Below, in pieces: positions 6,327-64,000 of a stretch of DNA of 64,000 nt. The DNA is from an uncultured Myxococcales bacterium. GTDB taxonomy: Bacteria > Myxococcota > Kuafuiibacteriia > Kuafuiibacteriales > Kuafuiibacteriaceae. The position numbers were made by a program, and so were the translations under genes. The notes under the pieces are model-generated. The model did no database searches, was not told where the DNA came from, and was given only the letters and a program-made list of their open reading frames with translations. The DNA lies in assembly GCA_964519665.1 (NCBI GenBank), contig CAZFIV010000012.1:44814-108813 (forward strand), read 5' to 3'. Position 1 is the first letter of the stretch; each line of letters starts with the position of its first letter.

Positions 6327-6338
6327 CGTCAGGACCTT

Positions 6339-7871: not shown

Positions 7872-7883
7872 GATATCTCCGCG

Positions 7884-8978: not shown

Positions 8979-9140
8979 GACGGTCCGATATGGACGCACA
9001 ATGACTGTGTCAAGGTCCCGTCCAAACATCGCGGACCTTTTTCTAGACAGGATCAGGACAGCGGTGCCAGTGGTGTTCTTGGTCGCAGCGTCGACGTCAA
9101 CCGTGATTTCCCGACGCCCAACAAAGGTCTACGCGACGCC

Positions 9141-12656: not shown

Positions 12657-12665
12657 GGAGTTGCT

Positions 12666-14165
12666 TTGACTGACGTTATCGTCATCGGCGCCGGGATTGG
12701 GGGACTCTCCGCGGCGATTTCGACTGCCGCCCGCGGTCACCGGGTCCGAGTGTTCGAAGCGAATACGCGGGCTGGCGGCAAAGCGGGCACCAGAATCATC
12801 GACGGCGTCGAGGTCGATACCGGCCCTAGCGTCGTCACGCTCCCCGAAGTCTTCGACGACCTCTTCAAGCTGGCCGGTTCCCGCCTCGAAGACGAGGTCT
12901 CGCTCCGGATCTCGACGCCGTCATTTCGGTATCGGTTCGCGGACGGGGTTCAACTCGACATGTTCCACGAGGTCGACGCCATGCTGGCCAGCATCGGTGC
13001 GACCCTGGGTTCCTCGGCGGCCGACGAAATGAACGCGTTCCTCAAGTACGCTCGGGAAGTCTGGGAGGCCGGCGCTCCGAACTTCGTGTACGGCAAGGCG
13101 CCGTCGTTCGGGCTGGTCTTGCGGCTCGGACTCACCCGCCTCAACGACGTGCGTCGAATCGACTCCATGCGGACGATGTACAAGGGCATCTGCGCGCACA
13201 TCCGTGAGCCCCACTTACGTTATCTGCTCGCTCGATACGCAACCTACAACGGCTCCAACGTGCTGACAGCACCCGCGACCCTCAACTGCATCGCACACGT
13301 TGAACTGGCCCTGGGCGGCTACGGCGTCGAGGGCGGGATCGCGGCCTTGGTCGAAGCCATGGTCCGCTGTGCCCGAAGGATGGGGGTGGAGTTCGCTTTC
13401 GAAACGCCGGTCCGCTCCATCGACGTGCGCAAGGGCCGAGTGGCTGGGGTGACGACCGAGCTCGGCGATTCCGTACCCGCGGCCAACGTGGTGGCCAACG
13501 CCGACGTCGGCCACGTCGCCACCCATCTGCTGCCCTCGTCTCATCGTCAGGTCGTGTCGGCTCCGACGCCCCCATCCATGTCCGGGTGGACGGGCATTCT
13601 TCGAGCCCAGCACGGCCCTGAGCCTCGTCCCGCCCATGCGGTCCTGTTCGCTGAAGAGTACCTCGAGGAATTCGTCGACATCTTCGACCGCGACCGGCCG
13701 CCCGAAACACCGACCGTATACTTGTGCGCACAGAAGACCTGTCACGGCCGCGCGGGATGGCCCGACGCCGAACCCGTCTTCGTCATGGCCAACTCTCCTG
13801 CGGAGCCCGAGAACGGAGTCCGCGACCCAGCGGTGTTCGAGGCCCTCGAGCGCCGGGTGCTCGACCGGCTGCGCCAAGCCGGTCTGATTCAGAACGGCGA
13901 CTCGCTCGTTTGGAGCCGGACGCCGACCGAGCTGGCGACCGCCTTTCCGGGCAGCCGAGGATCGATCTACGGGGCAGCTTCGAACAGCGCGACGGCGGCC
14001 TTCAAACGGCCGGCCAATCGAGTTCGGTCCCTGCCGGGCCTGTACTTGGCGAGCGGCAGCGCTCACCCCGGCGGCGGCTTGCCGCTTTGCGCCCTGTCCG
14101 GCGTGGCGGCCGCCAATGAGCTGGTTGCGGACAATGGTCACGGTACCCTGAGGGCCGTCTCGTGA
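12666..14165 (+). CDS. crtD: CrtI-family desaturase, probable 1-hydroxycarotenoid 3,4-desaturase
   Basis: IGAGIGGLSAA, DTGPSVVT and GLYLASGSAHPGGGLP. TTG start after AAGGAG. It is the second CrtI paralog and is linked to crtC. Confidence 0.75.
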   Translation: MTDVIVIGAGIGGLSAAISTAARGHRVRVFEANTRAGGKAGTRIIDGVEVDTGPSVVTLPEVFDDLFKLAGSRLEDEVSLRISTPSFRYRFADGVQLDMFHEVDAMLASIGATLGSSAADEMNAFLKYAREVWEAGAPNFVYGKAPSFGLVLRLGLTRLNDVRRIDSMRTMYKGICAHIREPHLRYLLARYATYNGSNVLTAPATLNCIAHVELALGGYGVEGGIAALVEAMVRCARRMGVEFAFETPVRSIDVRKGRVAGVTTELGDSVPAANVVANADVGHVATHLLPSSHRQVVSAPTPPSMSGWTGILRAQHGPEPRPAHAVLFAEEYLEEFVDIFDRDRPPETPTVYLCAQKTCHGRAGWPDAEPVFVMANSPAEPENGVRDPAVFEALERRVLDRLRQAGLIQNGDSLVWSRTPTELATAFPGSRGSIYGAASNSATAAFKRPANRVRSLPGLYLASGSAHPGGGLPLCALSGVAAANELVADNGHGTLRAVS

Positions 14166-40986: not shown

Positions 40987-43900
40987 ATGCGAAACTTACA
41001 GAAGATCTTCGGTCTATGTTTATGCGTCGGTTGCTCGGGGGGCCCGGTTGCGGACCGGGTCGCGTCGACTCCCGCCGCGGCCGCGCCATCCGACCGGAAC
41101 CGTCAAATCCCGATCTCGACGGCCCAGGATGGGCTCGAGTTCACGTTAAGCGAGGGTGACTCGCGAACGCCGCGACCCGACCGGACGCCGGAGGCGACGA
41201 CGCGAGAACTCTCATCGCGGGAAGCCGACCGGCTGCTGGGCCGCCTCTCTGCCTTGCCCGAGCCCCGACCGGAGACCTTCCAGCTTCCGGTCCAGAGTCG
41301 CCGACGCCCGGCGGCCCAAACCGTCGAGCGATCCTTTCCTCCCGAGAAAGACCGAACGCGCCCCGCGGTCCTGGATTCCGAAGGCCCGTTGAGGATCGTC
41401 CGCCGGGCCCCTGAAGGTTCGGTGACCGCCGCCGCCCGGATCACCGTGACCTTCGACGAGCCGATCGGCGAGATCGGCGCGGACCCTACGATTGCCGACG
41501 ATGACCCGCCGTTTCGGTTGACGCCCCCGACGGACGGGCGCTGGCGGTGGTTGAGTCCAAAGACTTTAGTCTTCGAAACCGAGTCAGGCCGCCTGCCGAT
41601 GGCCACGTCGTTCAAAGTCACCGCGCGCCCAAGTTGGCGATCTCCGACCGGCCGCCGCTTCGACGAGCGTTTCTCGTGGTCGTTCGAGACCCCGGCCCCC
41701 CGCGTCGTGGGTTGGCATCCGAGCGGCAACCAAGTCCGACCGCAGGTCATCCAGTCGCTCGATTTCGACCAGGCCGTCGACCCCGACGAAATCCGGCGCT
41801 TCCTGGTTGTCAAGGCCGGCGACCGCTCATTCCCGATCCGCGCCCCCACCGACCGAGAGCTCACCCGCGTCCAATCCGAAGACGGCGGACGCCCTGAGCC
41901 ACCGGGGCGCACTCGGGTGCCCTTCATCACCACGGAGCCCCTCCCCCTGGACACTCCGGTGACCGTCGCGTTGACGGCCGGCTGGCGGGGACGAGAGGGC
42001 CCCAGGAGGGCGGTCGGTGTCGTCCGTCATAAATTTTCGACTTATCCGCCGCTGGCTCTGCGCGATTCGCGCTGCGGGTGGAGGATGAATTGTCCTCCGT
42101 TTTCTTCCCCGTTCTATCTCGAGTTCAATAACCGCTTGGATCCGGAAGTCTTCGATCCGTCGAGCATTCGAGTCGAGCCCGCCATCCCAGACCTCGAGGT
42201 CGAGCTCAACGAAAACGTGATCTCCCTTCGAGGGATCACGCAAGGACGAACGACCTACAAGGTGACCGCCGCGGGCTCGGTGACCGACGTCTTTGGCCAA
42301 AAGCTGGGTGCCGACGAGACCGTCGAGTTCGCCGTCGGCGCCGCTGACCCTCACCTGGTCAGCATGGGCCAGCCGATGCGAATTCAGGATCCCGCGGCGC
42401 CCAACGCCTTCGAGGTCTCCAGCGTCAACTACCGGCGGCTCGAAGTCCGGGCGTGGCGAATGAAACCCAAGGACTGGGCGAAGTTCCTTCGCGGCAACCC
42501 GCGCGACCGCGACAACCGCCTGCGCCGGGTTCTCGGTCGCCCGCAGCTTTCGCGCACGGTTCGCGTGAAAGGTGAACCGGACCAACTGAATTCGACCGCC
42601 TTCGACTTGAGCCGAGTCTTCGGCGACCGACCCGGTCATGCGGTTATCGAGATCATTCCGCCGCGAACCGATCTGACCGGCTGGCGGCGCGAAAACCCGC
42701 CCGTCGTTCAGCAGTGGCTGCAGAAGACCGAGCTCGCGGTGCAGGTGCGCGTGGACGCGACCCGCCTGCTGGCGTGGGTGAGCGCGCTCACGAACGGCGC
42801 CCCGGTGTCGGGGGCCACCGTCGAGCTCTATCCCCTCGGTTTGACCGCGACCACCGACCCCGGCGGCTTGGCGAGCTTCGATCTGCCCGACGACGCGAAA
42901 GGCAACGGCGCCATGGTCATCGCCCGCCAAGGCAGCGACTCGGTCTTCGTGCCCGAGTCTCTTTGGCGGCGGTCCCACACCAGCTGGTCGAGAACGAAGT
43001 CGTCGGAGCTCTTGCGGGCGTTCGTCTTCGACGACCGCCACATCTACCGACCTGGGGAAGACGTCAAGATCAAGGGATGGTTGCGTATCGAGACCCCCGG
43101 ACCGAAAGGTGACTTGCAACCCCTCGATGGCCGCATCAAGACCTTGCAGGCGACATTCTTCGACGGATGGAACACCAAATTCGCGGAGACCACCGTCACG
43201 CCCAATCGATGGGGAGGCTTCGACCTGGCGTTCAGGATTCCCGACGATGCCAGCCTCGGACCAGCCCGCGTTCAATTCACGGCGAAACCTCAAACGGAGG
43301 CGGTCAGAGGCCTTTTCTTCCAGCACCGATACGAGATCCAGACCTTCCGCCGGCCTGAATTCGAAGTGCGCGTCGATGCGGACGCGCCCCCTTATCTCGT
43401 CGGTGAGTTCACCACCTTCGAAACCGAGGCTCGGTACTACGCCGGGGGCCCGTTGCCCGATGCCTCGGTGGACTGGCAGGTCTCGTCCGTACCCTCGGAG
43501 TACCAGCCCCCCGGATTCGACGACTATGCCTTCGGGCGCTGGCGACCCTGGTGGCTCTCGCTCGGCCCCCTGTTCGAGGTGGGCGAATCGAGCACCGCCC
43601 ACCGCAAAGAGTTCACCTCGCGGACGAACAGCGCGGGCCGAAGCCGCTTGCGAGTCGATCTGACCGGCATCGAGCCGCCCGAACCCACCACCGTCCGGGT
43701 GAGCGCCGCCGTCACCGACCGCAACCGGCAGACTTGGTCCGGCGACACATCCGTGTTGGTGCACCCCGCGAACCTCTATGTCGGCCTCAAGGCCGACCAA
43801 GGCTTTACCGACCTGGGCCAGCCCACGGCGGTCCCGGGGGTCGTCGTCGACATCGACGGCCGGCCGGCCCCCGGACACACGGTGACCGCCACCCTGGCTC

Positions 43901-46900
43901 GCCTCGCTTGGGAGCGAGACGGCAAGCGATGGTCGGAGGTCGAAAGAGATCCTCTTTCGTGCCGTGCGACCACCGATCCGGAGGGCCGGTTCAACTGCGA
44001 ATTCAAGCCCACCAAGGGCGGACGATATCGCCTGAGCGCGGAGATCCGAGATGAGCGGAACCGGCGAAACCGCACCACCCGCACGTTGTGGATCTCCGGA
44101 AGGTCAACGAACCCCGACCGCTCGGTCAATGCCGAACGGGTCCGGTTGGTGCCCGACCGCGCTCGCTACGAGCCGGGCGAGACCGCTCGTATCTTGATTC
44201 AGGCCCCGTTCGCCGACGCGCAAGGCCTCTTGACGGTAGAACGGGAAGGCATCGCCAGCACGACGAGGTTCGCGATCGATGGCGCCAGTCATGTCGTGGA
44301 GGTCCCGATCGCCGACAACTACTTGCCTCGGGTCCGCGTCGCGGTCGAGCTCGTCGGCCGTACTTCGCGCGACGATGCGCCCGAACGAATGCGTCCGGCC
44401 TTCGCCCACGGCGAGATCGACCTCGCCGTGAGCGAACGCCATCGCCGCCTGTTCGTCGAGGCTCGACCGGTGCAGCGACTCTTGGAGCCGGGCGCTCCGG
44501 CGGCGGTCGACGTCCGGGTGACCGACGCCGACGGGCAACCGGTCAGTGACGCCGAGGTCGCCATCGTCGTGGTCGACGAGGCGATCTTGGCCCTGACCGG
44601 CAGGAGCTCGCCGAACGCGATCGCGGCGATGTATCCGCCGCGTTCGGCCGGGGTCCGCATCATACGGACCCGAGACCGGCTGCAGCTCGGGAGTGCCAAA
44701 CTGTTGGCCGAAACATTGGGCTCCTATCGAAATGGGCGAGCCGCCGGTTTCACGTCCGGCGCGGTCGAAAATGGCGACATGATGGTGCAAGTCACCGGAA
44801 GCCGGATACGACGCCGCGCAGTCCTGCTGGATGGAGAACGAAAGACGTCCCGCGCCGATGAAGCGATCGTCGTTCGAAAAAACTTTTCGGCCCTCGCCAA
44901 CTTCAGTCCGGCCGAGATAACCGGCGCCGATGGCACCGCGAAAGTCACGTTTACGCTTCCCGACAGCGTGACCCGGTATCGGATCATCGCCGTCGCCGCG
45001 GACGCGCAGCGCCGATTCGGCAGCGGCGAGTCTTCACTCACCGCACGCAAAACGCTGGTCGTTCGTCCCTCCGCACCGCGGTTCCTCAATTACGGAGACC
45101 GGGCCGAGGTCCCGGTCATCGTTCAGAACGCCGGGGACATCCCCCTCGAGGTGAGTCTGGCCTTGAGAGCCCGCAACGCCCGCCTAGCCGGCGACCGCGG
45201 CCTCCGCTTCACGGTGCCGGGCGGCGACCGCCGCGAGGTCCGATTCCCCATCGAGACCGAGCGCGCCGGCCAGGCGTCCTTTCAGGTCGCGGCCAGCGCC
45301 GGCGAGCTGACCGACGCGGCGCAATTCACCTTGCCGGTGTACAGCCCGGCGACGACCGAGGCCTTCGCGGCCTACGGGACGACGAGCGAAGAGGCCGTCG
45401 TCCAGCCGTTACGGCGCCCCAGAGACGTCGTGCCGACCTTCGGGGGGCTCGAGATCTCCACCGCCTCGACCCAGTTGCAGTCGCTGACCGACGCCTACCT
45501 GTATCTTCGTCAGTACCCCTTCGAGTGTTCCGAGCAGATCGCCTCCCGGGTCCTCTCCACGGTGGCCCTCAAGGACGTGTTGGCCGCGTTCGACGCCAAA
45601 GACCTGCCCAGCCCGGAGGCGACCATCGCGGCCACCCAGCAGGACATCGAGCGGCTGGTCGAGATGCAGCGATGGGACGGCGGTTGGGGCTTCTGGACGG
45701 AAGAATCACCCGGCTGGCCGTTCCTGACCACTCACGTGATGCACGCGCTCGTCCGGGCCCGCGCCAAGGGGCTACAGGTGCCCAGCGAGCCCCTACGGGA
45801 CGGCCATCGGTACCTCCGCCGGATCGAACGCCACATTCCCCGGGACTATCCGGAGCCCGTGAAGATCAGCCTGCAAGCGTACGCCTTGTACGTCCGGTCG
45901 CTGATGGGCGACCTCGACGAACCCCGCGCGTTGAAGCTCATTCGGCAGTCGGGGGGGATCGACCGAATGCCCCTTGAGACGCTCGGCTGGCTCTACCCCG
46001 TGCTGATCGACGGCCAGAGCACCCAGTCCCCGCTCGCCCAGCTGCGCCGCCGCTTGAACAATGACGCCACCGAGACGGCGGGCGAGGCGCATTTCGTGAC
46101 CCGGTACGAAGACGGCGCGCACCTGCTGTTGCACTCGAACCGCCGCATCGACGCTCTGTTGCTGGACGGCTTGCTGCAGGACCGTCCGCAGGATCCGATG
46201 GTGCCCAAGCTCGTCAAGGGCCTGCTCGCGCACCGAACCCAGGGCCGCTGGAGCAGCACGCAGGAAAACACTTGGGTCTTGCTCGCGCTCGAGCGGTACT
46301 TCCGGGTCTACGAGAAAGTCACGCCCGACTTCGTGGCCCGCATCTGGTTGGGCGATCGATTCGCGGGCGAACAGGCCTACGAAGGGCGCAGCGCCGAGCA
46401 GCACCGGTGGTTCGTTCCGATGGCCCAGCTCGGTGACGCACGGGACATCGTCCTCGCCAAGACCGGCGACGGACGGCTGTATTATCGCCTCGGCCTTCGA
46501 TACGCGCCGTCGAGTCTGTCGCTGCCCGCCCTGGACCGCGGATTCGTGGTGACCCGACGGTACGAAGCGGTCGACGATGAAGGTGACGTCACTCGGGACG
46601 CCGACGGGACCTGGCGAGTACGCGCCGGCGCCGTGGTGCGAGTACGACTCGAGATGGTCGCGCCGAGCACGCGTTACCACGTCGCGTTGGTCGACGCTCT
46701 TCCGGCCGGCCTCGAGCCGCTCAACCCCGCCCTCGCAGTGACCCCCGACGTCGATGACGAGCCGGAGCTGCCCTCGTCGCCGTGGTGGTGGCAGCGACCG
46801 TGGTTCGAGCACCAAAACCTCCGGGATGAACGGGTCGAAGCCTTCGCTCCCCGGATCGGCGCGGGAGTCTATTCATACGACTACATGGCCCGGGCCACGA

Positions 46901-47004
46901 CTCCCGGACACTACGTCGTCCCTCCCGCCAAGGCCGAGCAAATGTACGCCCCCGAAACGTTCGGTCGCTCCGGGACCAACCGTCTGATCGTCTCCGCACC
47001 CTGA
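40987..47004 (+). CDS. bacterial alpha-2-macroglobulin
   Basis: 2005 aa with Ig-like N-terminus, DDRHIYRPGE, LPDSVTRYRI, thioester motif YPFECSEQ, STQEN and PPAKAEQMYAPE. Confidence 0.95.
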   Translation: MRNLQKIFGLCLCVGCSGGPVADRVASTPAAAAPSDRNRQIPISTAQDGLEFTLSEGDSRTPRPDRTPEATTRELSSREADRLLGRLSALPEPRPETFQLPVQSRRRPAAQTVERSFPPEKDRTRPAVLDSEGPLRIVRRAPEGSVTAAARITVTFDEPIGEIGADPTIADDDPPFRLTPPTDGRWRWLSPKTLVFETESGRLPMATSFKVTARPSWRSPTGRRFDERFSWSFETPAPRVVGWHPSGNQVRPQVIQSLDFDQAVDPDEIRRFLVVKAGDRSFPIRAPTDRELTRVQSEDGGRPEPPGRTRVPFITTEPLPLDTPVTVALTAGWRGREGPRRAVGVVRHKFSTYPPLALRDSRCGWRMNCPPFSSPFYLEFNNRLDPEVFDPSSIRVEPAIPDLEVELNENVISLRGITQGRTTYKVTAAGSVTDVFGQKLGADETVEFAVGAADPHLVSMGQPMRIQDPAAPNAFEVSSVNYRRLEVRAWRMKPKDWAKFLRGNPRDRDNRLRRVLGRPQLSRTVRVKGEPDQLNSTAFDLSRVFGDRPGHAVIEIIPPRTDLTGWRRENPPVVQQWLQKTELAVQVRVDATRLLAWVSALTNGAPVSGATVELYPLGLTATTDPGGLASFDLPDDAKGNGAMVIARQGSDSVFVPESLWRRSHTSWSRTKSSELLRAFVFDDRHIYRPGEDVKIKGWLRIETPGPKGDLQPLDGRIKTLQATFFDGWNTKFAETTVTPNRWGGFDLAFRIPDDASLGPARVQFTAKPQTEAVRGLFFQHRYEIQTFRRPEFEVRVDADAPPYLVGEFTTFETEARYYAGGPLPDASVDWQVSSVPSEYQPPGFDDYAFGRWRPWWLSLGPLFEVGESSTAHRKEFTSRTNSAGRSRLRVDLTGIEPPEPTTVRVSAAVTDRNRQTWSGDTSVLVHPANLYVGLKADQGFTDLGQPTAVPGVVVDIDGRPAPGHTVTATLARLAWERDGKRWSEVERDPLSCRATTDPEGRFNCEFKPTKGGRYRLSAEIRDERNRRNRTTRTLWISGRSTNPDRSVNAERVRLVPDRARYEPGETARILIQAPFADAQGLLTVEREGIASTTRFAIDGASHVVEVPIADNYLPRVRVAVELVGRTSRDDAPERMRPAFAHGEIDLAVSERHRRLFVEARPVQRLLEPGAPAAVDVRVTDADGQPVSDAEVAIVVVDEAILALTGRSSPNAIAAMYPPRSAGVRIIRTRDRLQLGSAKLLAETLGSYRNGRAAGFTSGAVENGDMMVQVTGSRIRRRAVLLDGERKTSRADEAIVVRKNFSALANFSPAEITGADGTAKVTFTLPDSVTRYRIIAVAADAQRRFGSGESSLTARKTLVVRPSAPRFLNYGDRAEVPVIVQNAGDIPLEVSLALRARNARLAGDRGLRFTVPGGDRREVRFPIETERAGQASFQVAASAGELTDAAQFTLPVYSPATTEAFAAYGTTSEEAVVQPLRRPRDVVPTFGGLEISTASTQLQSLTDAYLYLRQYPFECSEQIASRVLSTVALKDVLAAFDAKDLPSPEATIAATQQDIERLVEMQRWDGGWGFWTEESPGWPFLTTHVMHALVRARAKGLQVPSEPLRDGHRYLRRIERHIPRDYPEPVKISLQAYALYVRSLMGDLDEPRALKLIRQSGGIDRMPLETLGWLYPVLIDGQSTQSPLAQLRRRLNNDATETAGEAHFVTRYEDGAHLLLHSNRRIDALLLDGLLQDRPQDPMVPKLVKGLLAHRTQGRWSSTQENTWVLLALERYFRVYEKVTPDFVARIWLGDRFAGEQAYEGRSAEQHRWFVPMAQLGDARDIVLAKTGDGRLYYRLGLRYAPSSLSLPALDRGFVVTRRYEAVDDEGDVTRDADGTWRVRAGAVVRVRLEMVAPSTRYHVALVDALPAGLEPLNPALAVTPDVDDEPELPSSPWWWQRPWFEHQNLRDERVEAFAPRIGAGVYSYDYMARATTPGHYVVPPAKAEQMYAPETFGRSGTNRLIVSAP

Positions 47005-47030: not shown

Positions 47031-48044
47031 CTACGAGAGCCGACTTTCAACGACGGAGTCGATCGTCCGCAGGCCTTCTTCCGTGGCCGAGCAGCGAACC
47101 GCCCATCGGCGAGCCCGGGCAGCGGCGGCGGGCGGCGCGCGGTCGGCATAATCCGTGTAGAACCGGCGGGCGGTGACAAACCGGGCTCGAAGGCGACCGA
47201 TCAAGGGCCCGAGCGCTCCGTAGGTGGCGCCGCTCTTGAACGTGTTTACGAGAACCGTCCTCCGGGCGCCGAACCCGCCCGGCAGGCGATCTTCTCGGCC
47301 CACCGACCGTACTGCTTGCCGGCTCAAAAAAGCGCCCCCTCGGATGGGGGTCAGCAGGAGATCGGCGATGTCGCCGAGGCCGGTTTCGTCGGCCGCGAGC
47401 AAGGTCGCCCACGCCGATGAAGCGACCGGTTCAGCCTCGGCGAGGAGATTCGCAGCCTCGTCCGAAGACGGAAGATCACTTCGATGATGGTGCAAGAGCT
47501 CGGTGACCCGCTCCGCCCACATGCGGTAGAACGGAAAGTCACCGTTGTGCAGCGCTTCCGCCAACGCTGGCCACCACCAAAGAAGGTGGGCGTCGAGCAA
47601 CTCGATTTGCATCTGCTCGATGGCTGCGACCACCTCCGTTCGGGCGTCGACCCGGGCGTCGGCCTCCGCTCCGCACAGAAACGCCATCGCCTCCAGCAGC
47701 CAGCTGACATGGTCGGGCGTCGGTCCGGTCGGGTCGACGCGAAAGCCGATCCTCGAGAAGAATGCGGCAACGCGGTCGGTTTCCGGACCTCCCGGCATCG
47801 CGTCGTCCCCCAGAAAGACCCCCTGAAACGGAAAGATCTCGTGCACCAAAGCCTGGTAGTGCGCGGCCGAAGCACGGTCGAAGTCGACCGGACCGCCCGA
47901 CGTCGGGCGCCACCGGTCGATCTCGGACGCGAGCTCCGGCACCGCGTCAGCCAGCGGCATCAAGTCGGGCGTCCACCCTTGCCTCGCGATGGCAGCAAAC
48001 AACCCGTAAGCGCGACTTCGCGCCTCCGCCAGATGAGCTGACAT
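47031..48044 (-). CDS. TorD/DmsD-family molybdoenzyme maturation chaperone
   Basis: FPFQGVF, PDHVSWLLEAMAFL and LDAHLLWW; last gene of the Mo-enzyme operon. Confidence 0.85.
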   Translation of the reverse strand: MSAHLAEARSRAYGLFAAIARQGWTPDLMPLADAVPELASEIDRWRPTSGGPVDFDRASAAHYQALVHEIFPFQGVFLGDDAMPGGPETDRVAAFFSRIGFRVDPTGPTPDHVSWLLEAMAFLCGAEADARVDARTEVVAAIEQMQIELLDAHLLWWWPALAEALHNGDFPFYRMWAERVTELLHHHRSDLPSSDEAANLLAEAEPVASSAWATLLAADETGLGDIADLLLTPIRGGAFLSRQAVRSVGREDRLPGGFGARRTVLVNTFKSGATYGALGPLIGRLRARFVTARRFYTDYADRAPPAAAARARRWAVRCSATEEGLRTIDSVVESRLS

Positions 48045-48047
48045 GCA

Positions 48048-51041
48048 CTAGGAACGGCCAAAAGGCGCCGTGGGAAGAGCGTAGGTGGCTTTGCTCGGCT
48101 TGAGCGGCCGCTTGAGCCAGAACGGGCGCCGAGTGCCGTCGGGGCTGTGGTCGACGCTCGACCGCGTGAGCCCCACCCACTCCCGATACACCTGCATCGA
48201 CCGGTTCGTATCGACGTACACATCGCCGAACTTCTCGTTGCCTTGGGCCTTGCGCACGCTCACCGCCTTCTGCAGCCAGCAGTGCGCACCGCTGATCGGG
48301 TCGGGGTGCACGGCGTGGGTCAAGTTTTGGTGCACACCGACGTCTTCCCACCACACCCGCGCGGTATCGGGGTCGAAGCTCGAATAGGCCTTCGCGCCCT
48401 GCTTCACGGTGAGGGTGTGGCCGCCCGTTCCGTCCTCGGCGAGGCTGACCAGGTTCGACATACCGGGGTTCACGCCGGTGCCATCTTGCAGACGCCACCG
48501 TCCGAGGTGGTGGCTCATCGCGATCACCCCTGGCTTGATGCCTTCGGTCACCCACACTCGGTCGACGAAATAGCCGATCTCCGTCTCGACCCGAACGAGG
48601 TCGCCGGTCGCCACACCGAGACGGGTCGCGTCGACCGAATTCATCCACACCGGATTCTTGTGGCTGATCTCGTATAGCCACTTCGCGTTCGCGCTGCGGG
48701 TATGAATGAGGGTCGGAAGCCGGAAGTTGGGCAGCAACAGCATCTCGCCCCGGTCCCGATCGATGTGGCGGGGATGCACGTGGCTCTCCAGGGGCCACGG
48801 GACCGTGTATCGCTGCTCGGGCCAGCCCCAGTTGTGGAGCGTCGTACTGAAGAACTCCAACCGTCGACTCGGCGTCTCGAAGCCCTTGCACGCGTCACCG
48901 TCGACCATGAGACCCACTGCCGTGCCGTCGGATTTCAAGACCCGACCGCGCTCGTCGACGGTGGTCGCCCCCGTGTCGACCGGCTTCAGGTAAGGCGCGT
49001 AGTTCTCCTTCACCACCTCGAAGCAAGCATACTTGCGCATGTACTCGAGCGGCTTCAACCCCTCGGCGGCGGCCGCCTCGGGGAGGCCGGGTACGGAGTT
49101 CTCGAAGATCCACTGATAGTACTCGTCGACGGTGATGATCTCGCCGGACCGGAAAGGACTCTCAAAGTGCTGGCGAATGCCCAGCGAACCGTCCGGATCC
49201 ATGCGGTCGGACAGGTCGATCCACAGCTCATTCTCCTCCCAAACCTCGCCGGGATTCGCTTCGTAGGTCCGGTTGACCTTCTGCCCGAGCTTCTCCATCG
49301 CGACCCGACGGACCGGCTGCCGAAATCCAATCCATTGCCCAGCGTGGGTCTCCTGGCTCATGAGGTCGTGCCGCTCGCCGGCGTGACCCATCGGCAGCAC
49401 GTAGTCCGCAAACCAAGCGGACTCGTTCCACGTCGGCGTCAGAGCAACATGGAGCTTGAGTTTTTCTTCATCCCGAAGGGCCTTCAGCCACATGAATCCG
49501 TCGGGATTGATCCACATCGGGTTGTAGACCCGAGTAAAGTACACATCGACGTCACCTCGCCCTTCCTCGAGGAAGTGGGGCAACAGGAACGACATCTCAT
49601 AAAAGGCGAACGGCCACTCGTGGGGCAAATGCAGCTCGTTCCAGCTCTCGATGGCCGGCGGGACTTTGAACGGCTTGGGCACGAACTTGTTCCAACTGTT
49701 GCCCGATGTACCGCCCTTGGTACCGACCCCACCGGTCAGCACGCTCAAGAAGAATAGGCAGCGGGCGATCTGCCAGCCGCCGAGATTGCCGATGGTCGCC
49801 GAACGCCAGGTATGAGCGGCCAGCCGGCCCTCGCAGGCCGCTACCATCTCCGCCGCCTCGACGATCCGTTCAACGGGTACCAACGCTTCGTCGGCCGCTC
49901 GTTGGAAGGTAAAGGGCGCGTACAACGCCTTCAAGACCCGGTCGAAGACCTCGAAGTCGACGTCTCCGCGCTCTTCTCGAGCCCGCAGGAAGGCGACCTT
50001 GACTCCTTCATCGCTGTCGCTCTCGGGGAGCATCTGCAGATATTCTTGCCAGTTCGTCCACCGCCGGACGAACTCTTTGTCGTACAGATCGTTCTGAATC
50101 AGGTGGTTGGCGATGGCCAGCAACACCCACCCTTCACTGCCCGGCCACGTCGGCAACCACACGTCGCTCTTAGCCGCGGTGTTCGACAGCCGAGGGTCGA
50201 AGGTGATCAGTTTGGCCCCCTTCTCCTTGCCCTCGATGATCCGCTGAGCGTGAGGATTGAAGTAGTGACCGGTCTCGAGATGACTCGACACCAATAGAAT
50301 GCACCGGGCCTCGGAGTAGTCAGGGCTGGGTCGATCGAAACCGGCCCAGAAGTGGTAACCCGCCCGGGCGCTCGACGAGCAGATATTGGTGTGTGAGTTG
50401 TGACCGTCGACGCCCCACGCTTGAATGCAACGGTTGGTGTATCCGTCTTCGCCGGGCCGTCCGACGTGGTACATGATGCCATCGCGTCGACGCTGCCGGC
50501 TCTGCCGCATCTTGCCCGCGATGTCGTCGAGCGCCTCGTCCCAGGTGACCCGCTTCCACTTGCCCTCGCCGCGGGCACCCACCCGCTTGAGTGGATAGAG
50601 GATCCGCTCGGGGTCGTACACCTGGTTGTGGGTCGCCGGGCCCTTGGCGCAGTTGCGACCGCGGCTACCGGGGTGCACGGGGTTGCCTTCGAACTTCTTG
50701 ATCTCCAGCGTCGTTCGGTCGACGTAGGCCAGGAGACCGCAAGCGCTCTCGCAGTTGAAACAGATGGTTGGGATCAGCATGTACCGTCGCGGCACTCGGC
50801 GCGGCCAGGCCCGTGGATCCCACTCGACCCAATCGTCCCACTTTTCGGCCGGAGGATATTGGCTCATCCGGCCGTCAGGATGCTGGACGACGGTCAACTT
50901 GACCGGCTCTTGAGTGTGTTCCCCGAACGACGGAAGGTCTTGTCCGCCTACGTTGGTCGGCGCACGTCCTGCGGGGCGCGGCGTAACGCGAGACCGCCCC
51001 ATGAGGCGATCTAGAAACGAAGGTGCCGTATAACCTGCCAT
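48048..51041 (-). CDS. DMSO-reductase-family molybdopterin oxidoreductase, catalytic subunit, no Tat signal
   Basis: CFNCESACG...C [4Fe-4S] motif, RILYPLKR, HNSHTNICSS (probable Cys ligand), DPRLS, DYVLP and C-terminal VWMNSVDA. No RRxF motif in the N-terminus. Confidence 0.92.
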   Translation of the reverse strand: MAGYTAPSFLDRLMGRSRVTPRPAGRAPTNVGGQDLPSFGEHTQEPVKLTVVQHPDGRMSQYPPAEKWDDWVEWDPRAWPRRVPRRYMLIPTICFNCESACGLLAYVDRTTLEIKKFEGNPVHPGSRGRNCAKGPATHNQVYDPERILYPLKRVGARGEGKWKRVTWDEALDDIAGKMRQSRQRRRDGIMYHVGRPGEDGYTNRCIQAWGVDGHNSHTNICSSSARAGYHFWAGFDRPSPDYSEARCILLVSSHLETGHYFNPHAQRIIEGKEKGAKLITFDPRLSNTAAKSDVWLPTWPGSEGWVLLAIANHLIQNDLYDKEFVRRWTNWQEYLQMLPESDSDEGVKVAFLRAREERGDVDFEVFDRVLKALYAPFTFQRAADEALVPVERIVEAAEMVAACEGRLAAHTWRSATIGNLGGWQIARCLFFLSVLTGGVGTKGGTSGNSWNKFVPKPFKVPPAIESWNELHLPHEWPFAFYEMSFLLPHFLEEGRGDVDVYFTRVYNPMWINPDGFMWLKALRDEEKLKLHVALTPTWNESAWFADYVLPMGHAGERHDLMSQETHAGQWIGFRQPVRRVAMEKLGQKVNRTYEANPGEVWEENELWIDLSDRMDPDGSLGIRQHFESPFRSGEIITVDEYYQWIFENSVPGLPEAAAAEGLKPLEYMRKYACFEVVKENYAPYLKPVDTGATTVDERGRVLKSDGTAVGLMVDGDACKGFETPSRRLEFFSTTLHNWGWPEQRYTVPWPLESHVHPRHIDRDRGEMLLLPNFRLPTLIHTRSANAKWLYEISHKNPVWMNSVDATRLGVATGDLVRVETEIGYFVDRVWVTEGIKPGVIAMSHHLGRWRLQDGTGVNPGMSNLVSLAEDGTGGHTLTVKQGAKAYSSFDPDTARVWWEDVGVHQNLTHAVHPDPISGAHCWLQKAVSVRKAQGNEKFGDVYVDTNRSMQVYREWVGLTRSSVDHSPDGTRRPFWLKRPLKPSKATYALPTAPFGRS

Positions 51042-51048
51042 GTGGTCC

Positions 51049-52719
51049 TCAGGAGTTCGGGATGTGTTGGGGCGCCATTACGAACGCGTATTCGAACCAA
51101 TAGAGGCCGGCGATCACCGCGACCGCGGCCGCGCCGGCTAGAACCGGAGATGAACCGAGCAGCAGCAACCCGAACGGAACCAGGTGGCCCACCAAGACGC
51201 TGCCCGTCCAAAAGTGATGGCGATACTTGCCCCGTGTAATGTCGTGAGCGGCGGCCGCGGCCACGTCGGTCGCGTGGGGCATGCCGAACTCGCCGACCAG
51301 GGTCACGAACAGGTCGACGCCGAGGCTGACCATCCAGACCCACCACACCAACGACATCAACCCCTCGGGCGCGTCGAGCACCACGGACAGCAGGCCGAGC
51401 GTTGCTGCGCCCACCATGAGCGCTTGAATCAGAAGATGAGCCGGCAGCAAGGTGCTCTGCCAAAGGTCGCGGCCCTCGGCCTGGCCGAAGAGGAAGGCCG
51501 TGTACACGGCCGTGCCCACCGCCAACGGAGTCCCCGCTGCGAGAAGAGCGGTGCGCGCCGTCGCGACCGAATCCGTCCACCCGAAATAGGCCGCCGCTTC
51601 CACCAGCAACCACAGGCCCGCGACGACCGAAAAGCCGATCAGAATGAACGCGCCGCGCACCAACCAGCTTCGCCACTGCGGAAACCGAAGAATGCTCAGA
51701 AAGCGGGTTGGACGCTCGAGATCATAAATGAGAAGCGCGGTCGTCACGCCGATCGACCCGACCGACACTGCGGCGGCCAGCAACGCATAGGGCGCGTCGC
51801 CGCCGAGGGGCATGAGCCCGAGCCCCCACGCCACCGCCATGATCAGGAAGATGCCCGCGCCGATGCCCTTGGTGACCAGATACGCCGGCACCGGCCAGTG
51901 CCAAGGCACGTGATGCTGGGCGTTGTAGCCCACCTGAACCATATGCTCGGCCATGCGACCGGGCGCGAGCTGAATGGGACCACCGGCGGGGTGACCTTGG
52001 TCGGCGGCCGACCGAATCGGGGTGCCCGACGGGGCGCGCCCGAGCTCCGGTTCTGCCTCTGCGCCGGCGTGAAGGGGGCCGTTCGAGCCCGGCGTTCCGT
52101 ATTCGGCCTCCGACACGACCTCCGCCCACATGAAGGTAGACGGGGTCGCGGTCGCGGTCGGAGTCAGAGCGACCGCGTCACCATCGATGTAAAAGAGCTT
52201 CGGCCCGGTCCCTTGTTCCGGCTTGCGAACCGCGACCTTCTCTTTGGTCAACACTCGGCTTATTTCGGAGGCCGGATCGTCGAGGTCGCCGGCGATGATC
52301 GCGTGCTCCGGACAGACCACCACGCAGGCCGGCTCCAGGCCCAGGTCCGTGCGGTGCGAGCAAAAGTGGCACTTGCTGGCGGTGCCTGAATTCGGGTCGA
52401 TGTGAATGGCATCGTACGGACACGCCTGCAGACAGGCTTTGCATCCGATGCAGCGATCCGGGTCGAACTCGACGATGCCATCGTGGCGCTGGTACATCGC
52501 GGTGACCGGGCAGATGCGAACACACGGAGGGTTCGCGCAGTGGTTGCATCGCGTCACTTGAAATGTGCGCTGGGTGTTGGGGTACTGGCCGTGCTCCGTG
52601 TATTTGACCCACGTCCGATACACGCCCAGCGGCACTTCGTTTTCGCTTTTGCAGGCCGTCGAACAGGCGTGACAGCCAATGCAAGTGCGGTTGTTGATGA
52701 CAAACCCGAAGTTCGGCAC
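51049..52719 (-). CDS. fused NrfC/DmsB-type 4x[4Fe-4S] protein and NrfD/PsrC-type membrane anchor
   Basis: CIGCHACSTAC, CNHCANPPCVRICP, CIGCKACLQACP and KCHFC...CVVVCP, then WHWPVPAYL, DLERP and about 8 TMs. GGAG RBS before GTG 52719. Confidence 0.92.
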   Translation of the reverse strand: MPNFGFVINNRTCIGCHACSTACKSENEVPLGVYRTWVKYTEHGQYPNTQRTFQVTRCNHCANPPCVRICPVTAMYQRHDGIVEFDPDRCIGCKACLQACPYDAIHIDPNSGTASKCHFCSHRTDLGLEPACVVVCPEHAIIAGDLDDPASEISRVLTKEKVAVRKPEQGTGPKLFYIDGDAVALTPTATATPSTFMWAEVVSEAEYGTPGSNGPLHAGAEAEPELGRAPSGTPIRSAADQGHPAGGPIQLAPGRMAEHMVQVGYNAQHHVPWHWPVPAYLVTKGIGAGIFLIMAVAWGLGLMPLGGDAPYALLAAAVSVGSIGVTTALLIYDLERPTRFLSILRFPQWRSWLVRGAFILIGFSVVAGLWLLVEAAAYFGWTDSVATARTALLAAGTPLAVGTAVYTAFLFGQAEGRDLWQSTLLPAHLLIQALMVGAATLGLLSVVLDAPEGLMSLVWWVWMVSLGVDLFVTLVGEFGMPHATDVAAAAAHDITRGKYRHHFWTGSVLVGHLVPFGLLLLGSSPVLAGAAAVAVIAGLYWFEYAFVMAPQHIPNS

Positions 52720-52743
52720 GAGGGCTCCTCCGAACGACGTCGA

Positions 52744-52759
52744 CGCAAAGGTTGTGCCG
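52744..52759 (-). promoter_or_regulatory. sigma54 (-24/-12) promoter for the Mo-enzyme operon
   Basis: Minus strand CGGCACAACCTTTGCG = GG-N10-GC, with GC ~26 nt upstream of the GTG. Confidence 0.7.
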
Positions 52760-52878
52760 TTCCTCACGACGCTGCATCGCGCCCGCCCATGTCGCCGCTG
52801 TTTCAGAGCTTTGAACCATCGGTGCTACCTTTATGAAACGGTGGTGAGGTTGCCGCTCACTTGGGCAACGGTCGCCGC

Positions 52879-55725: not shown

Positions 55726-56646
55726 TCAATATCTAGGCACCGTGTTGTCGACGTGCAGCGCCCACGCGTCGATTCCCCCGGTCATGTTGAAGACGTTGCG
55801 GAAGCCCCGTGCGGTGAACCGTTCGGCCATGGCCTGGCTTCGCGGACCGTGATGGCAGTGGAAGACCAGCATCGTGTTGCGGTCCCGATCCATGAGCTCT
55901 CGCTCGTACTGCGCATCCAGGAGTCGTGCGGCCTCGATACGAGCGATCTTGGCCTCCTCGGGGGTGCGAACATCGATGAGGTCGAGCTTCTCGCCGGCTT
56001 CGAGCTTGGCCTGTACGTCTTCGGGGGCGATCTGACGAACCCGAGCAGGAGCATTGGGGTTGTCGATCTTGAATCCCCCTTGTTCGCCGGGAACGAAGTC
56101 GATGACGACCCCGTTGGCCCGCTGGGCGGTTCCGGTGTCCATGATGACCTTCAGCCCATTGGCATCGACGGTGACGTCGATCGGACCGGCCGCGTCGAGG
56201 TCCAGGCCGGGTCGAAAAGTGGGATCGATCATCAGACGAACCGACGTGCCCGGCTGCTCGGACAGGGGCCCTTTGAGGGCCTCGGAGGCCGCGTCGGTGA
56301 TCGTAATGGTCGGCGGCTCGACCTGCGGCGGCTCGCGGCCGAGGATCTTGAACAGCTCGCCGCTTTCATACTTTTGAACGACGATGTCGCAGCCACCGAC
56401 GAACTCGCCCTTGACGTAGAGCTGCGGAATCGTTGGCCACTCGGAAAATTCCTTGATACCCTGGCGGACTTCTGCGTCTTCGAGCACGTTGATCGTCTTG
56501 TACTCGGGAAGCACCGTGTCGAGGATCTGAACGACCTGGGCCGAGAAACCGCACTGCGGCATCCGACGGTGCCCTTTCATGAAGAGCACGACCTCGCTCC
56601 CGTCGATGGTGTTCTGGATTTGGGCTCGAACGTTGTCACTCAGCAT
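55726..56646 (-). CDS. grxD: monothiol glutaredoxin (Grx4) fused to HesB/IscA-like and rhodanese domains
   Basis: LFMKG...PQCGFS and WPTIPQLY...GG, then ITITDAA...GFKIDNPN, then DVRT...CHHGPRS. The start was trimmed to ATG 56646 (GGAG RBS). Confidence 0.88.
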
Positions 56647-56662
56647 TATAAGGACTCCTCCT

Positions 56663-59542
<2,880 letters not shown>

Positions 59543-59710
59543 CGGACGCTCACGCGGCGGTGATACCGCCGCATACGCCTGTCTAGCGTCGCCGAGATAG
59601 GGGCACAAGCTCCAATCGCGGCCGCCGCAGGGCGCCAAGGGGCCTCCCCTGGGGTGCGCGCTCCTCGTTCCAGGTCGAGTCAAGGCCCCGCGATGCTCGT
59701 CGAACGCCGA

Positions 59711-61515: not shown

Positions 61516-62451
61516 TCATGCAGCCGCGCGAATCTCGTCGGTCGCCGTGAGCAACGAACCCAGATTTCTCAGATGGCTTTCCACCGCCGAGGCGCCTAGC
61601 TTGCGTGCGAGCTTCTTCACCAAGGCCGGCGGATAGGCCGACCGCAACATTTTCTTGCCGTTCGACGTCAGCACGCAGTGCACAATTCGCGCATCGTTAG
61701 CGTCGTCACGTTTCTCGATGAGGCCTTTGGTCTCGATGGCCTTTAGGGTTTGGGAGACCGTCCCCTTGGTGAGGTCGAGGTGCCGGCTCAGCCCGGACGG
61801 GGTGTCGGAGTTTTCTTCGCAGCTGGCCAGGTACTGAAGGGCCTCCAGCTGCACCAGCTTCAGCCCCTGGGCGGTCGCCAACTGCCGAATCTCGGCGCGA
61901 AAGATGCTGCCCAACCGGCACATGCTCTCGGAGAGATCGATGACCAACTCGGTCTCTTTACCCCGGCTTCGCTGCTTGCACGCCTTGCATTCACCGCATC
62001 GGTCGAACGCCTTTTGCTGCCGAATGGTCTGCGCCTCTGCGATAAGTGCCCGGAGGCCTGTCAACAGTGCTTTCGCCTGCCGCGGCCCTAGGCTTCGTTC
62101 GAGCTTTCTGACGAACGGCGGCACCTGCGTCGACCGCGCTATCTTACGGCCGGCCATCGTCAGCTCGCAGTGCACGATCCGAGCGTCTGCATCGTCGCCG
62201 TACTTTTCGATGAGACCTTTGGCTTCGAGCGCCTTCAGAGTCTGGGACACCGTTCCTTTGGTCAGGTCGAGGTACTCACTGAGTCCGGCTGGCGTCCGGC
62301 TGAAGTGCAAACACGACGCCAGATAATGGATGGCCTCGAGCTGGACGAGCTTGAGCCGATGGGCGGTCCCTTGCTGACGCATTTCCGCTCGAACGACGGT
62401 CGCGAGACGGCCGAGGTGTTCACAGAGAGAAGCGACGGTCACGGCGGGCAA
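61516..62451 (-). CDS. tandem (duplicated) MarR-family regulator
   Basis: Two units, each with LKLVQLEA(I/L)xYLASC...TP.GLS..LDLTKGTVSQTLKA...KGLIEK..D..DARIVHC.LT; the linker has CGECKAC. Confidence 0.9.
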   Translation of the reverse strand: MPAVTVASLCEHLGRLATVVRAEMRQQGTAHRLKLVQLEAIHYLASCLHFSRTPAGLSEYLDLTKGTVSQTLKALEAKGLIEKYGDDADARIVHCELTMAGRKIARSTQVPPFVRKLERSLGPRQAKALLTGLRALIAEAQTIRQQKAFDRCGECKACKQRSRGKETELVIDLSESMCRLGSIFRAEIRQLATAQGLKLVQLEALQYLASCEENSDTPSGLSRHLDLTKGTVSQTLKAIETKGLIEKRDDANDARIVHCVLTSNGKKMLRSAYPPALVKKLARKLGASAVESHLRNLGSLLTATDEIRAAA

Positions 62452-62569: not shown

Positions 62570-62935
62570 CTACTCAACGTTACGAAACAGGAAGCGACTA
62601 AAGAAATGTCGATTCCGAGCCACGATGTAGTAGCCAAGCTCGACGAACCAGATGAAGGGCACCCACCCCATGACTCGCGCAAACCAACGAAAGCCGACTT
62701 GCGATAGGATAAACAGGGACGCCCGACCTGCTTTGAGGACCCGTCCATCACTGGTGATGACATGCATCGCCCGACCGCACGCTTCGCGCAGCTCGGGAGT
62801 CATCGGTGGTGACGGCGCTTCTTGGTAGGGCACCGCCTCGAAGCATTCGCTTCCTTCTTGCAGCCTGACCCAGGCTACCGACCGGCGTCAGAAGCCTCAG
62901 TCGCCATCCCAAAGGATGTAGTGCTTTCGTTCCAC
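62570..62935 (-). CDS. DCC/DUF393 thiol-disulfide oxidoreductase with two in-frame UGA codons (candidate UxxU selenoprotein)
   Basis: GTG 62935 reads VERKHYILWDGD*GF*RRSVAWVRLQEGSECFEAVPYQ... in frame with the truncated ORF 62570..62833 (AMHVITSDGRV..G...ELGYYIVARNR). The TGAs at 62899-62897 and 62890-62888 sit at both Cys positions of DxxCxxC. An in-frame TAG 4 codons upstream fixes the start. Confidence 0.8.
62860..62878 (-). promoter_or_regulatory. candidate bacterial SECIS hairpin
   Basis: mRNA GUAGCCUG-GGU-CAGGCUGC (8 bp including one U.G pair, G-rich loop), starting 9 nt after the second UGA. Confidence 0.65.
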
Positions 62936-63856: not shown

Positions 63857-63895
63857 AAGGGTCGGCGGCGGCCGGGCGGCGCCCGCCGAGCCCTT
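63857..63895 (-). terminator. GC-rich hairpin downstream of the partial minus-strand gene
   Basis: AAGGG-TCGGCGG...CCGCCGA-G-CCCTT stem with one bulge. Confidence 0.4.
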
Positions 63896-63907
63896 ACGAA
63901 GCCGACC

Positions 63908-63970
63908 GGCTACTCGGGCTACTCGGGCTACTCGGGCTACTCGGGCTACTCGGGCTACTCGGGCTACTCG
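63908..63970. repeat. 9-bp tandem repeat (GGCTACTCG) x7
   Basis: Seven exact copies counted directly. Confidence 0.97.
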
Positions 63971-64000
63971 TCGTCGTCATCGTCATCGTCGTCGTCGTCG
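63964..64000 (-). CDS. C-terminal end of a gene entering from the right (poly-Asp tail)
   Basis: The minus strand reads GAC/GAT x10, GAG, TAG = DDDDDDDDDDE*. Confidence 0.65.
   Translation of the reverse strand, partial: DDDDDDDDDDE

Follow-up and report, generated by a model that had tools for sequence, protein, structure and literature searches.

Two in-frame UGA codons and a candidate selenocysteine insertion element in a DCC1-like oxidoreductase gene of an uncultured Myxococcales bacterium

The DCC gene and its reading frame

A gene of the DCC1-like (DUF393/YuxK) family of thiol oxidoreductases lies on the minus strand of a 64,000-nucleotide stretch of contig CAZFIV010000012.1 from an uncultured Myxococcales bacterium (assembly GCA_964519665.1), the whole of which we refer to as the window. 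In this gene, referred to here as the DCC gene, the two codons that would specify the cysteines (Cys) of the DxxCxxC redox motif are both TGA, and a small hairpin that resembles a bacterial selenocysteine insertion sequence (bSECIS) lies just downstream of them. The features of the gene are collected in Table 1, with positions counted from the first nucleotide of the window.

Table 1. Features of the DCC gene on the minus strand of the window
Feature	Position	Strand	Description
Full-length DCC1-like (DxxUxxU) gene	62570..62935	minus	121 codons plus TAG stop
GTG start codon	62933..62935	minus	12 codons ahead of UGA1
UGA1, codon 13	62897..62899	minus	Aligns with the first Cys of DxxCxxC
UGA2, codon 16	62888..62890	minus	Aligns with the second Cys of DxxCxxC
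Candidate bacterial SECIS hairpin	62860..62878	minus	5'-GUAGCCUG-GGU-CAGGCUGC-3', 8-bp stem including one G-U
Truncated open reading frame from mechanical finding	62570..62833	minus	87 aa, start at GTG 62833

From the GTG (62935-62933) to the TAG (62572-62570), the frame reads VERKHYILWDGD-TGA-GF-TGA-RRSVAWV..., and the residues that follow the second UGA are RRSVAWVRLQEG... in the window gene. The two TGAs are the only internal stops, and no frameshift was found. Upstream, the frame ends at an in-frame TAG (62947-62945, four codons 5' of the GTG), which leaves GTG 62935 as the sole possible start ahead of the TGAs. The public gene call for this locus, P0013, is 77 aa long and begins at ATG 62803, which makes it shorter than the open reading frame (ORF) that was found mechanically. 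A first-pass annotation of this DNA, made from the sequence alone, had proposed that the gene extends upstream of the ORF start at 62833 as an otherwise uninterrupted 121-codon frame, that it belongs to the DCC family, that both catalytic Cys codons are TGA, and that standard gene callers would truncate it. All four proposals were borne out by the frame, by the two shortened gene calls and by the comparisons that follow. The G+C content at third codon positions (GC3) is 0.66 in the DCC gene compared to 0.76 in the neighboring MarR2 gene and 0.81 in GcvP. This low value may reflect a short gene constrained by its hairpin, or horizontal acquisition.

For protein comparisons of the window gene, U (selenocysteine, Sec) was read as C. 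The product matched the Pfam DCC1-like profile PF04134 with a score of 54.5 bits (cut-off 27.8; E=3.4e-14), and the match was near end-to-end, spanning residues 7-113 and profile positions 1-111 of 113. Twenty-five full-length homologs of 53-63% identity were aligned with it; W9, D10, C13 and C16 were invariant, and both UGAs fell exactly on the two Cys columns of DxxCxxC. The motif follows a hydrophobic strand in the context ILW-D-GD-U-GF-U.

An AlphaFold model of a natural Cys homolog that is 64% identical to the window protein (P0001) had a pLDDT of 86 and a pTM of 0.77. It comprised strand b1 (6-10), the CxxC pair (14, 17), helix a1 (15-27), strand b2 (33-37), a further helix, two strands and three C-terminal helices. 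In this model the redox pair is predicted to sit at the N-terminus of helix alpha-1, as it does in thioredoxin and glutaredoxin. A Foldseek comparison of the model with the Protein Data Bank (PDB) returned weak matches only (best E=0.02, TM-score ~0.4), all of which have the thioredoxin fold: glutaredoxins, glutathione S-transferase N-terminal domains, mycoredoxin and thioredoxin. No solved structure of any DCC protein was found when the PDB sequences were searched with a profile. Some bacterial DCC members are fused to HTTM domains. Among DCC members, an activity has been reported only for Arabidopsis DCC1, namely reduction of a disulfide in the protein CA2 (PMC7598583).

Recurrence of the UGA codons and the linked hairpin

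Related loci were collected from one genome per GTDB species (80 loci) and from metagenomes (80 loci), and the two motif codons were read wherever the motif could be placed. Among the GTDB species genomes, 14 loci had TGA at both positions (UxxU), one had TGY followed by TGA (CxxU), and 58 had Cys codons at both (Cys/Cys). The corresponding metagenome counts were 13, 3 and 61. Together with the window this gave 151 loci, of which 28 were UxxU, 4 were CxxU and 119 were Cys/Cys; the UxxC form was found in 0 of the 151. The first motif codon was thus TGA in 28 of the 151 loci and the second in 32, the latter including all four CxxU genes. At the protein level the 32 TGA-bearing genes amount to 28 distinct sequences, and the two TGA positions of the window gene were also TGA in 27 further loci of other organisms.

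Carriers of the TGA forms were found in Myxococcota (L003, L034, L058 and L073), Armatimonadota (L005, L049, L053 and L067), Chloroflexota of the class Anaerolineae (L015), Planctomycetota (L046, on the complete chromosome of a Ca. Uabimicrobium, and L071, a Ca. Brocadia) and Actinomycetota (L078, and L041 in the CxxU form). Complete genomes with a UxxU gene include NZ_CP165719.1 (Ca. Uabimicrobium sp. HlEnr_7) and OZ241372.1 (Anaerolineae). In all TGA genes, conservation of the protein sequence extended to either side of the TGAs, with a start codon 5-15 codons upstream of the motif. At the exact position of the window GTG, the start was ATG in L003, L005 and L053, GTG in L067, and TTG in L041 and L049. 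L003 encodes a protein 68% identical to that of the window and also shares the downstream gene order of the window, which marks it as the closest relative.

Every Sec form in the public databases was a truncated or hypothetical ORF (P0013, P0123 and P0194, the last of which is locus L165, a confirmed UxxU gene). A search with the gene from the RefSeq genome, L046, returned no full-length entry and no entry named selenoprotein. The idea that all truncated database calls are Sec forms was rejected, as P0184 (locus L163) is a CxxC gene with a miscalled start.

The hairpin carries a GGU loop at 62870-62868 that begins 17 nt past UGA2 and 26 nt past UGA1, and its consensus in the TGA-bearing genes is CCGCCUG-GGU-CAGGCGG. 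A contiguous stem of 6-9 bp was present in register in 32 of 32 TGA genes, compared to 0-4 bp in 118 of the 119 Cys genes. Two Cys genes, L019 and L032, encode the same peptide at this site (AAWVRRRD) with CGC instead of AGG, and form no stem. The arginine (Arg) codon in the 3' arm was AGR in all 32 Sec forms and CGN in 19 of the 20 Cys forms with Arg at this position (Fisher p=2.6e-13). In a 16-sequence alignment the six core pairs were formed in every sequence, with compensatory changes at two stem pairs (CG 12, AU 2 and UA 2 at one; CG 13 and UA 3 at the other). The covariation score of this alignment was 0.217 compared to 0.115 for shuffled alignments, and none of 500 shuffles reached the observed value. 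Paired cells amounted to 81%, compared to 18-43% when the 3' partner columns were slid, and RNAalifold recovered the same helix. The compensatory changes, the forced AGR codons and the stemless Cys genes with the same peptide show that selection on the hairpin acts at the RNA level and not at the protein level.

In the SECIS of E. coli fdhF, the loop sequence GGUC starts ~18-19 nt after the UGA. The hairpin of the DCC genes is like the fdhF type in that it is a stem-loop inside the ORF, directly 3' of the UGA, with G-G-U in a small apical loop, and the GGUC of the window starts ~18 nt after UGA2, close to the fdhF spacing. It differs in its shorter, perfect stem (6-9 bp), in which no bulged U is evident, and in that it would serve two UGAs. 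Published criteria for bSECIS elements call for a loop of 3-9 nt, a stem of 4-16 bp, a G in the first two loop positions, a UGA-to-loop distance of 16-37 nt and a minimum free energy (MFE) of -7.5 kcal/mol or lower (PMC13188914), and for both UGAs the hairpin falls within every one of these limits (PMC13188914 model). The 28-nt MFE ranged from -8.3 to -16.2 kcal/mol across the TGA genes, and the window centroid structure, at -12.5, was the same hairpin.

An alternative hairpin, GGCUU.CUGAC-GCCG-GUCGG.AGCC (62873-62896, minus strand), extends across UGA2 and, in the longer MFE fold, is in competition with the 5' arm of the SECIS stem. It was seen in the window and in L003 only. Since the other Sec-form genes are without it, it is probably lineage-specific or due to chance.

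Decoding of the UGA codons

The window DNA, including both TGAs, was identical in two independently assembled stromatolite metagenome runs (SRR6462991 and SRR6462992). Both TGAs were kept in diverged short contigs of other community members, drawn from the contigs of four runs, and the only variant listed in those contigs was a synonymous third-position change at 62885. The short, low-depth stromatolite contigs align at ~85-93% identity, and only over the segment that holds the UGAs and the hairpin (62847-62935). They suggest that other members of the stromatolite community carry UxxU DCC genes of their own. TGA terminates 28 of the 50 long ORFs in the window and is therefore a normal stop codon in this genome, and the residue that aligns with the TGAs is Cys, neither tryptophan nor glycine.

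The first-pass annotation had argued that Sec recoding accounts for the two codons better than a pair of chance nonsense mutations, and the 28 UxxU and 4 CxxU genes with their linked SECIS-type hairpin sustain that argument. The outcomes that it had named as refuting this idea included TGAs unique to this assembly, orthologs that are all Cys-coded, and genome-wide reassignment of TGA. What was found instead were identical TGAs in two assemblies and their retention in diverged contigs, TGA-bearing orthologs in five or more phyla, and a TGA that ends more than half of the long ORFs and aligns with Cys.

Taken as a whole, the results are best explained if the window gene encodes a SECIS-dependent, two-Sec DCC1-like oxidoreductase, a reading to which we assign a probability of about 0.8. 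It is very likely that the gene is a full-length gene recoded in a SECIS-dependent manner, and reasonably probable that Sec is inserted at both UGAs in this organism and not at the second alone. The product would be a 121-residue DCC1-like thiol-disulfide oxidoreductase in which both redox residues of DxxCxxC are encoded by UGA, with the single GGU-loop hairpin inside the ORF acting as the bacterial SECIS for both codons. SelB with Sec-tRNA(Sec) would dock on this hairpin, leading to insertion of Sec at the UGAs in place of termination. Helix alpha-1 of a thioredoxin-like fold would carry the resulting DxxUxxU motif at its N-terminus, and a cycle between diselenol and selenenyl-selenide (diselenide) would be expected to replace the dithiol/disulfide cycle of the Cys proteins.

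Several observations weigh against a two-Sec product. No selA, selB, selD or tRNA-Sec was found in the 64-kb window, a small part of the genome, by a tRNA-Sec scan, an Rfam scan and Pfam annotation of the ~50 ORFs, and the Rfam scan returned no match of any kind in the window. The same four genes were absent from the flanks of every Sec-form locus, and tRNA scans of 34 loci were empty. As Sec genes seldom lie close to the genes that they serve, the lack of tRNA and Rfam matches is uninformative. No second selenoprotein gene was evident in the window in two scans for read-through TGA genes, one by C/U context and one by GC3. Only antisense-frame noise was returned, because GC3 does not discriminate at 64.6% GC. 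Folded alone, the window hairpin was unexceptional for its GC-rich composition (z=-0.75). Because this single-sequence score is not significant, the argument is carried by the comparative evidence. The single hairpin also has to serve two UGAs that lie 9 nt apart, an arrangement that has been proposed, not demonstrated, for other UxxU genes (PMC13582414). Finally, a UGA that is followed by a SECIS can be read as Cys by tRNA-ReC (PMC13582414), and this could happen at one or both UGAs of the DCC gene.

The last point leads to an alternative that the first-pass annotation left out. Decoding may depend on SECIS and SelB while a tRNA of the tRNA-ReC (SelC*) type reads one or both UGAs as Cys, in which case the mature protein would carry CxxC, CxxU or UxxC, possibly as a selenium-dependent mixture. 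tRNA-ReC was reported in ~56% of the genomes with UXXU-type hydrogenases compared to ~2.3% of other Sec-type genomes, and in 5 of 5 among Armatimonadota (PMC13582414). Armatimonadota are also among the carriers of UxxU DCC genes (L005, L049, L053 and L067), and the first UGA, at 26 nt, is the farther one from the loop. Decoding of this type would nevertheless still require the whole Sec apparatus of SelB and SECIS. A UGA with its hairpin is costlier than a Cys codon, and its upkeep is hard to explain if Cys were the sole product. The 119 Cys-coded relatives get by with TGY. Scans of the window and of the locus flanks turned up no tRNA whatsoever. We consider this alternative unlikely.

Quite improbable is a gene in which only UGA2 is recoded to Sec, with UGA1 mostly terminating translation or allowing low-level read-through, so that there is little full-length product or another residue at position 13. 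All four single-TGA genes do have their TGA at position 2, and UGA2 lies near the classical fdhF spacing, with UGA1 9 nt farther away. This is countered by the 28 genes, from many lineages, that keep the TGA at position 1 together with a conserved 12-codon N-terminus, as is hardly to be expected of a codon at which translation mostly stops, by the existence of other UxxU families, and by the distance of 26 nt itself, which is inside the 16-37 nt consensus range for bSECIS elements (PMC13188914). The in-frame downstream starts at GTG 62833 and ATG 62803 would allow a functional short C-terminal protein that lacks the redox motif, with the 12-codon ORF and the hairpin, which would then lie in the 5' leader, serving as a regulatory leader or attenuator. 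These downstream starts are not conserved in the family. Conservation does cover the stretch ahead of the TGAs and the codons between them, which make up strand beta-1 and the DxxCxxC motif in the DCC fold. The loop sequence and its distance from the UGAs obey SECIS rules, and the C-terminal fragment would, according to the model, be without strand beta-1 and the start of helix alpha-1. A functional product of this kind is very improbable. The remaining alternative is a pseudogene whose frame is decaying after two nonsense mutations struck the catalytic Cys codons by chance. It would fit the truncated ORF obtained by standard gene calling and the GC3 of 0.66 below the 0.76-0.81 of the neighbors. 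Another 27 loci, spread over at least five phyla, have the same two TGAs in an intact frame, in every case together with a covarying hairpin, and the window frame has no other stop or frameshift and identical DNA in two assemblies. Recurrence and hairpin linkage effectively refute a pseudogene, and its probability is close to negligible.

If the two-Sec reading holds, the distribution of the three codon states bears on how the motif arose. The existence of CxxU genes, which are 4 of the 4 single-Sec genes, and the absence of UxxC suggest that Sec was first gained at position 2, the nearer of the two to the hairpin, and later at position 1 by way of the same hairpin. L092 (positions 1026-1100 of metagenome contig Ga0134127_10285220) has TGC and TGT at the two motif codons and keeps an 8-bp hairpin together with the AGG codon. 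Its sister in a neighbor-joining tree was a CxxU gene, and L092 looks like a gene that has recently reverted from Sec to Cys and still has a fossil SECIS. The resolution of the neighbor-joining tree, which held 142 proteins, was too poor to count gains and losses of Sec.

A broader proposition, which we regard as evenly balanced, is that the UxxU form of DCC occurs widely in nature as a diselenide redox protein, chiefly in aerobic bacteria from soils and mats (Myxococcota, Armatimonadota and Planctomycetota), and that it relies on one minimal SECIS at 17 and 26 nt. Were this so, the family would offer a compact natural system for the spacing tolerance of SelB and SECIS and for diselenide chemistry in a thioredoxin fold. 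It would also open the stepwise evolution from CxxC through CxxU to UxxU to study, as all three states and a revertant with a fossil SECIS are extant.

Relation to known selenoproteins and neighboring genes

A May 2026 review gives domain accessions for 119 families and subfamilies of prokaryotic selenoproteins (PMC13188914), and PF04134, DCC and DUF393 are absent from its Table 1 and its text. DCC and DUF393 are not mentioned in the GOS selenoproteome, deep-Sep and BSepDB papers either. A search of a literature library found no paper there that pairs DUF393 or DCC with selenoprotein and none that mentions PF04134. The window protein had no match at E<=0.01 in NCBIfam release 20, which holds the NCBI selenoprotein naming models. 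The DCC genes with in-frame UGA thus appear to form an uncatalogued selenoprotein family, in agreement with the first-pass annotation, which did not count DCC among the classic bacterial selenoprotein families. The kind to which this family belongs is well known, namely the Sec form of a thiol oxidoreductase with a bSECIS inside the ORF and many Cys homologs, and UxxU has precedents. Additional selenoprotein families regularly come to light in bacteria. The first-pass annotation was right that the motif is rare and overstated the surprise, as UxxU is already known in several bacterial families.

The closest comparison is with the Cys-type DCC1-like/DUF393/YuxK proteins (PF04134, which includes Arabidopsis DCC1). 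The window protein matches their profile over its whole length and is ~55-64% identical to many bacterial members. It has DxxCxxC at the same place after strand beta-1 and, as predicted from the model, shares their thioredoxin-like core and C-terminal helices. The window gene differs in that both Cys codons are UGA and a SECIS-type hairpin occupies the codons for A-W-V-R-R.

In aquatic organisms, the SelL protein described by Shchedrina et al. in 2007 reportedly carries UxxU in place of CxxC in a thioredoxin-fold protein and provides a precedent for diselenide redox chemistry. SelL belongs to a different, Prx-like family and mainly uses eukaryotic SECIS elements in the 3' untranslated region, and no sequence kinship to the window protein is expected. 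The 119-family review assigns UxxU to no more than three groups, a Prx-like family, the metal-binding protein NF041115 and a protein of the FmdB family (PMC13188914). Like the window protein in the two-Sec reading, these catalogued proteins (the Prx-like thiol:disulfide oxidoreductase PF00578, as UxxC or UxxU; NF041115; and FmdB-family TIGR02605) have two Sec in a redox or metal-binding motif where their homologs have CxxC, and they were predicted from in-frame UGA and bSECIS. They are unrelated families, however, and the window protein matches none of them.

A further parallel is offered by the large subunits of UXXU and CXXU Group 4 [NiFeSe] hydrogenases, in which UGA-N6-UGA is followed by one conserved SECIS that is shared by the CxxU relatives (PMC13582414). 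Their UXXU forms are likewise spread as a mosaic among Cys forms, and Armatimonadota and Chloroflexota carry both families (PMC13582414). In these hydrogenases, though, the Sec residues are nickel ligands of a large metalloenzyme and UxxC does occur (PMC13582414), whereas in the DCC family they would form the redox pair of a 121-aa thioredoxin-fold protein and UxxC was never seen.

These genes add a selenoprotein family that is missing from the latest 119-family catalogue and from the NCBI naming models, and because it is missing from both, public annotation truncates or drops its members (P0013, P0194 and P0123). They provide 32 natural examples, from at least five phyla, of a rare two-Sec motif with one very small hairpin, along with CxxU intermediates and one revertant. 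The reach of a SECIS from its UGA, any part that tRNA-ReC may have in UxxU decoding and the role of a diselenide in a thioredoxin-fold enzyme become testable with them. The source organism of the window and its relatives are probable users of Sec.

Directly downstream of the DCC gene, on the same strand and after a 119-nt gap, lies a gene (61516-62451) whose 311-aa product has a tandem pair of MarR-type winged-helix domains. The linker between the domains contains CGECKACK, a CxxCxxC motif, and no terminator-like site was found between the DCC gene and this gene. The protein could be a redox-sensing regulator that is co-transcribed with the selenoprotein. A conserved operon partner was rejected as a candidate, as the order MarR, hypothetical, FxsA, NUDIX was shared by L003 only. 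A DUF2071 (PF09844) gene adjoins the DCC gene in 15 of the 151 loci, with both Sec and Cys forms, and sometimes overlaps the DCC stop codon. The DUF2071-adjacent loci are given as L005, L058, L067, L159, L163 and L165 and 11 Cys-form loci. No DUF2071 gene stands beside the DCC gene in the window. The DUF2071 protein may be a lineage-specific functional partner.

Other redox genes in the window include a minus-strand cluster at 47031-52767 that encodes a 572-aa 4Fe-4S dicluster/NrfD fusion, a 997-aa molybdopterin oxidoreductase with an Fe4S4 domain and a nitrate-reductase-delta-like chaperone. The cluster resembles a respiratory complex of the Psr/Ttr/Nrf type, and its catalytic subunit is without an in-frame TGA. 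A 337-aa glutaredoxin-rhodanese fusion is encoded on the minus strand at 55726-56739, adjoining the gene for glycine dehydrogenase GcvP (56663-59683), and it too is without an in-frame TGA. Rhodanese-domain proteins include known selenoprotein forms.

On the plus strand, positions 40987-47004 encode a 2005-aa bacterial alpha-2-macroglobulin with MG2, bMG3, bait-region, A2M and bMG10 domains. Carotenoid-type genes lie at 5334-9029 (minus strand) and 11304-14165 (plus strand), encoding a phytoene/squalene synthase, two amine-oxidase-type desaturases, a polyprenyl synthetase and a family-2 glycosyltransferase, and the window also holds three sigma-54 activators. The carotenoid-type genes and the sigma-54 activators fit the content of a Myxococcota-like genome. 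Near the window end, a short minus-strand ORF at 63894-63986 encodes (Pro-Ser-Ser) repeats that derive from a 9-nt tandem DNA repeat.

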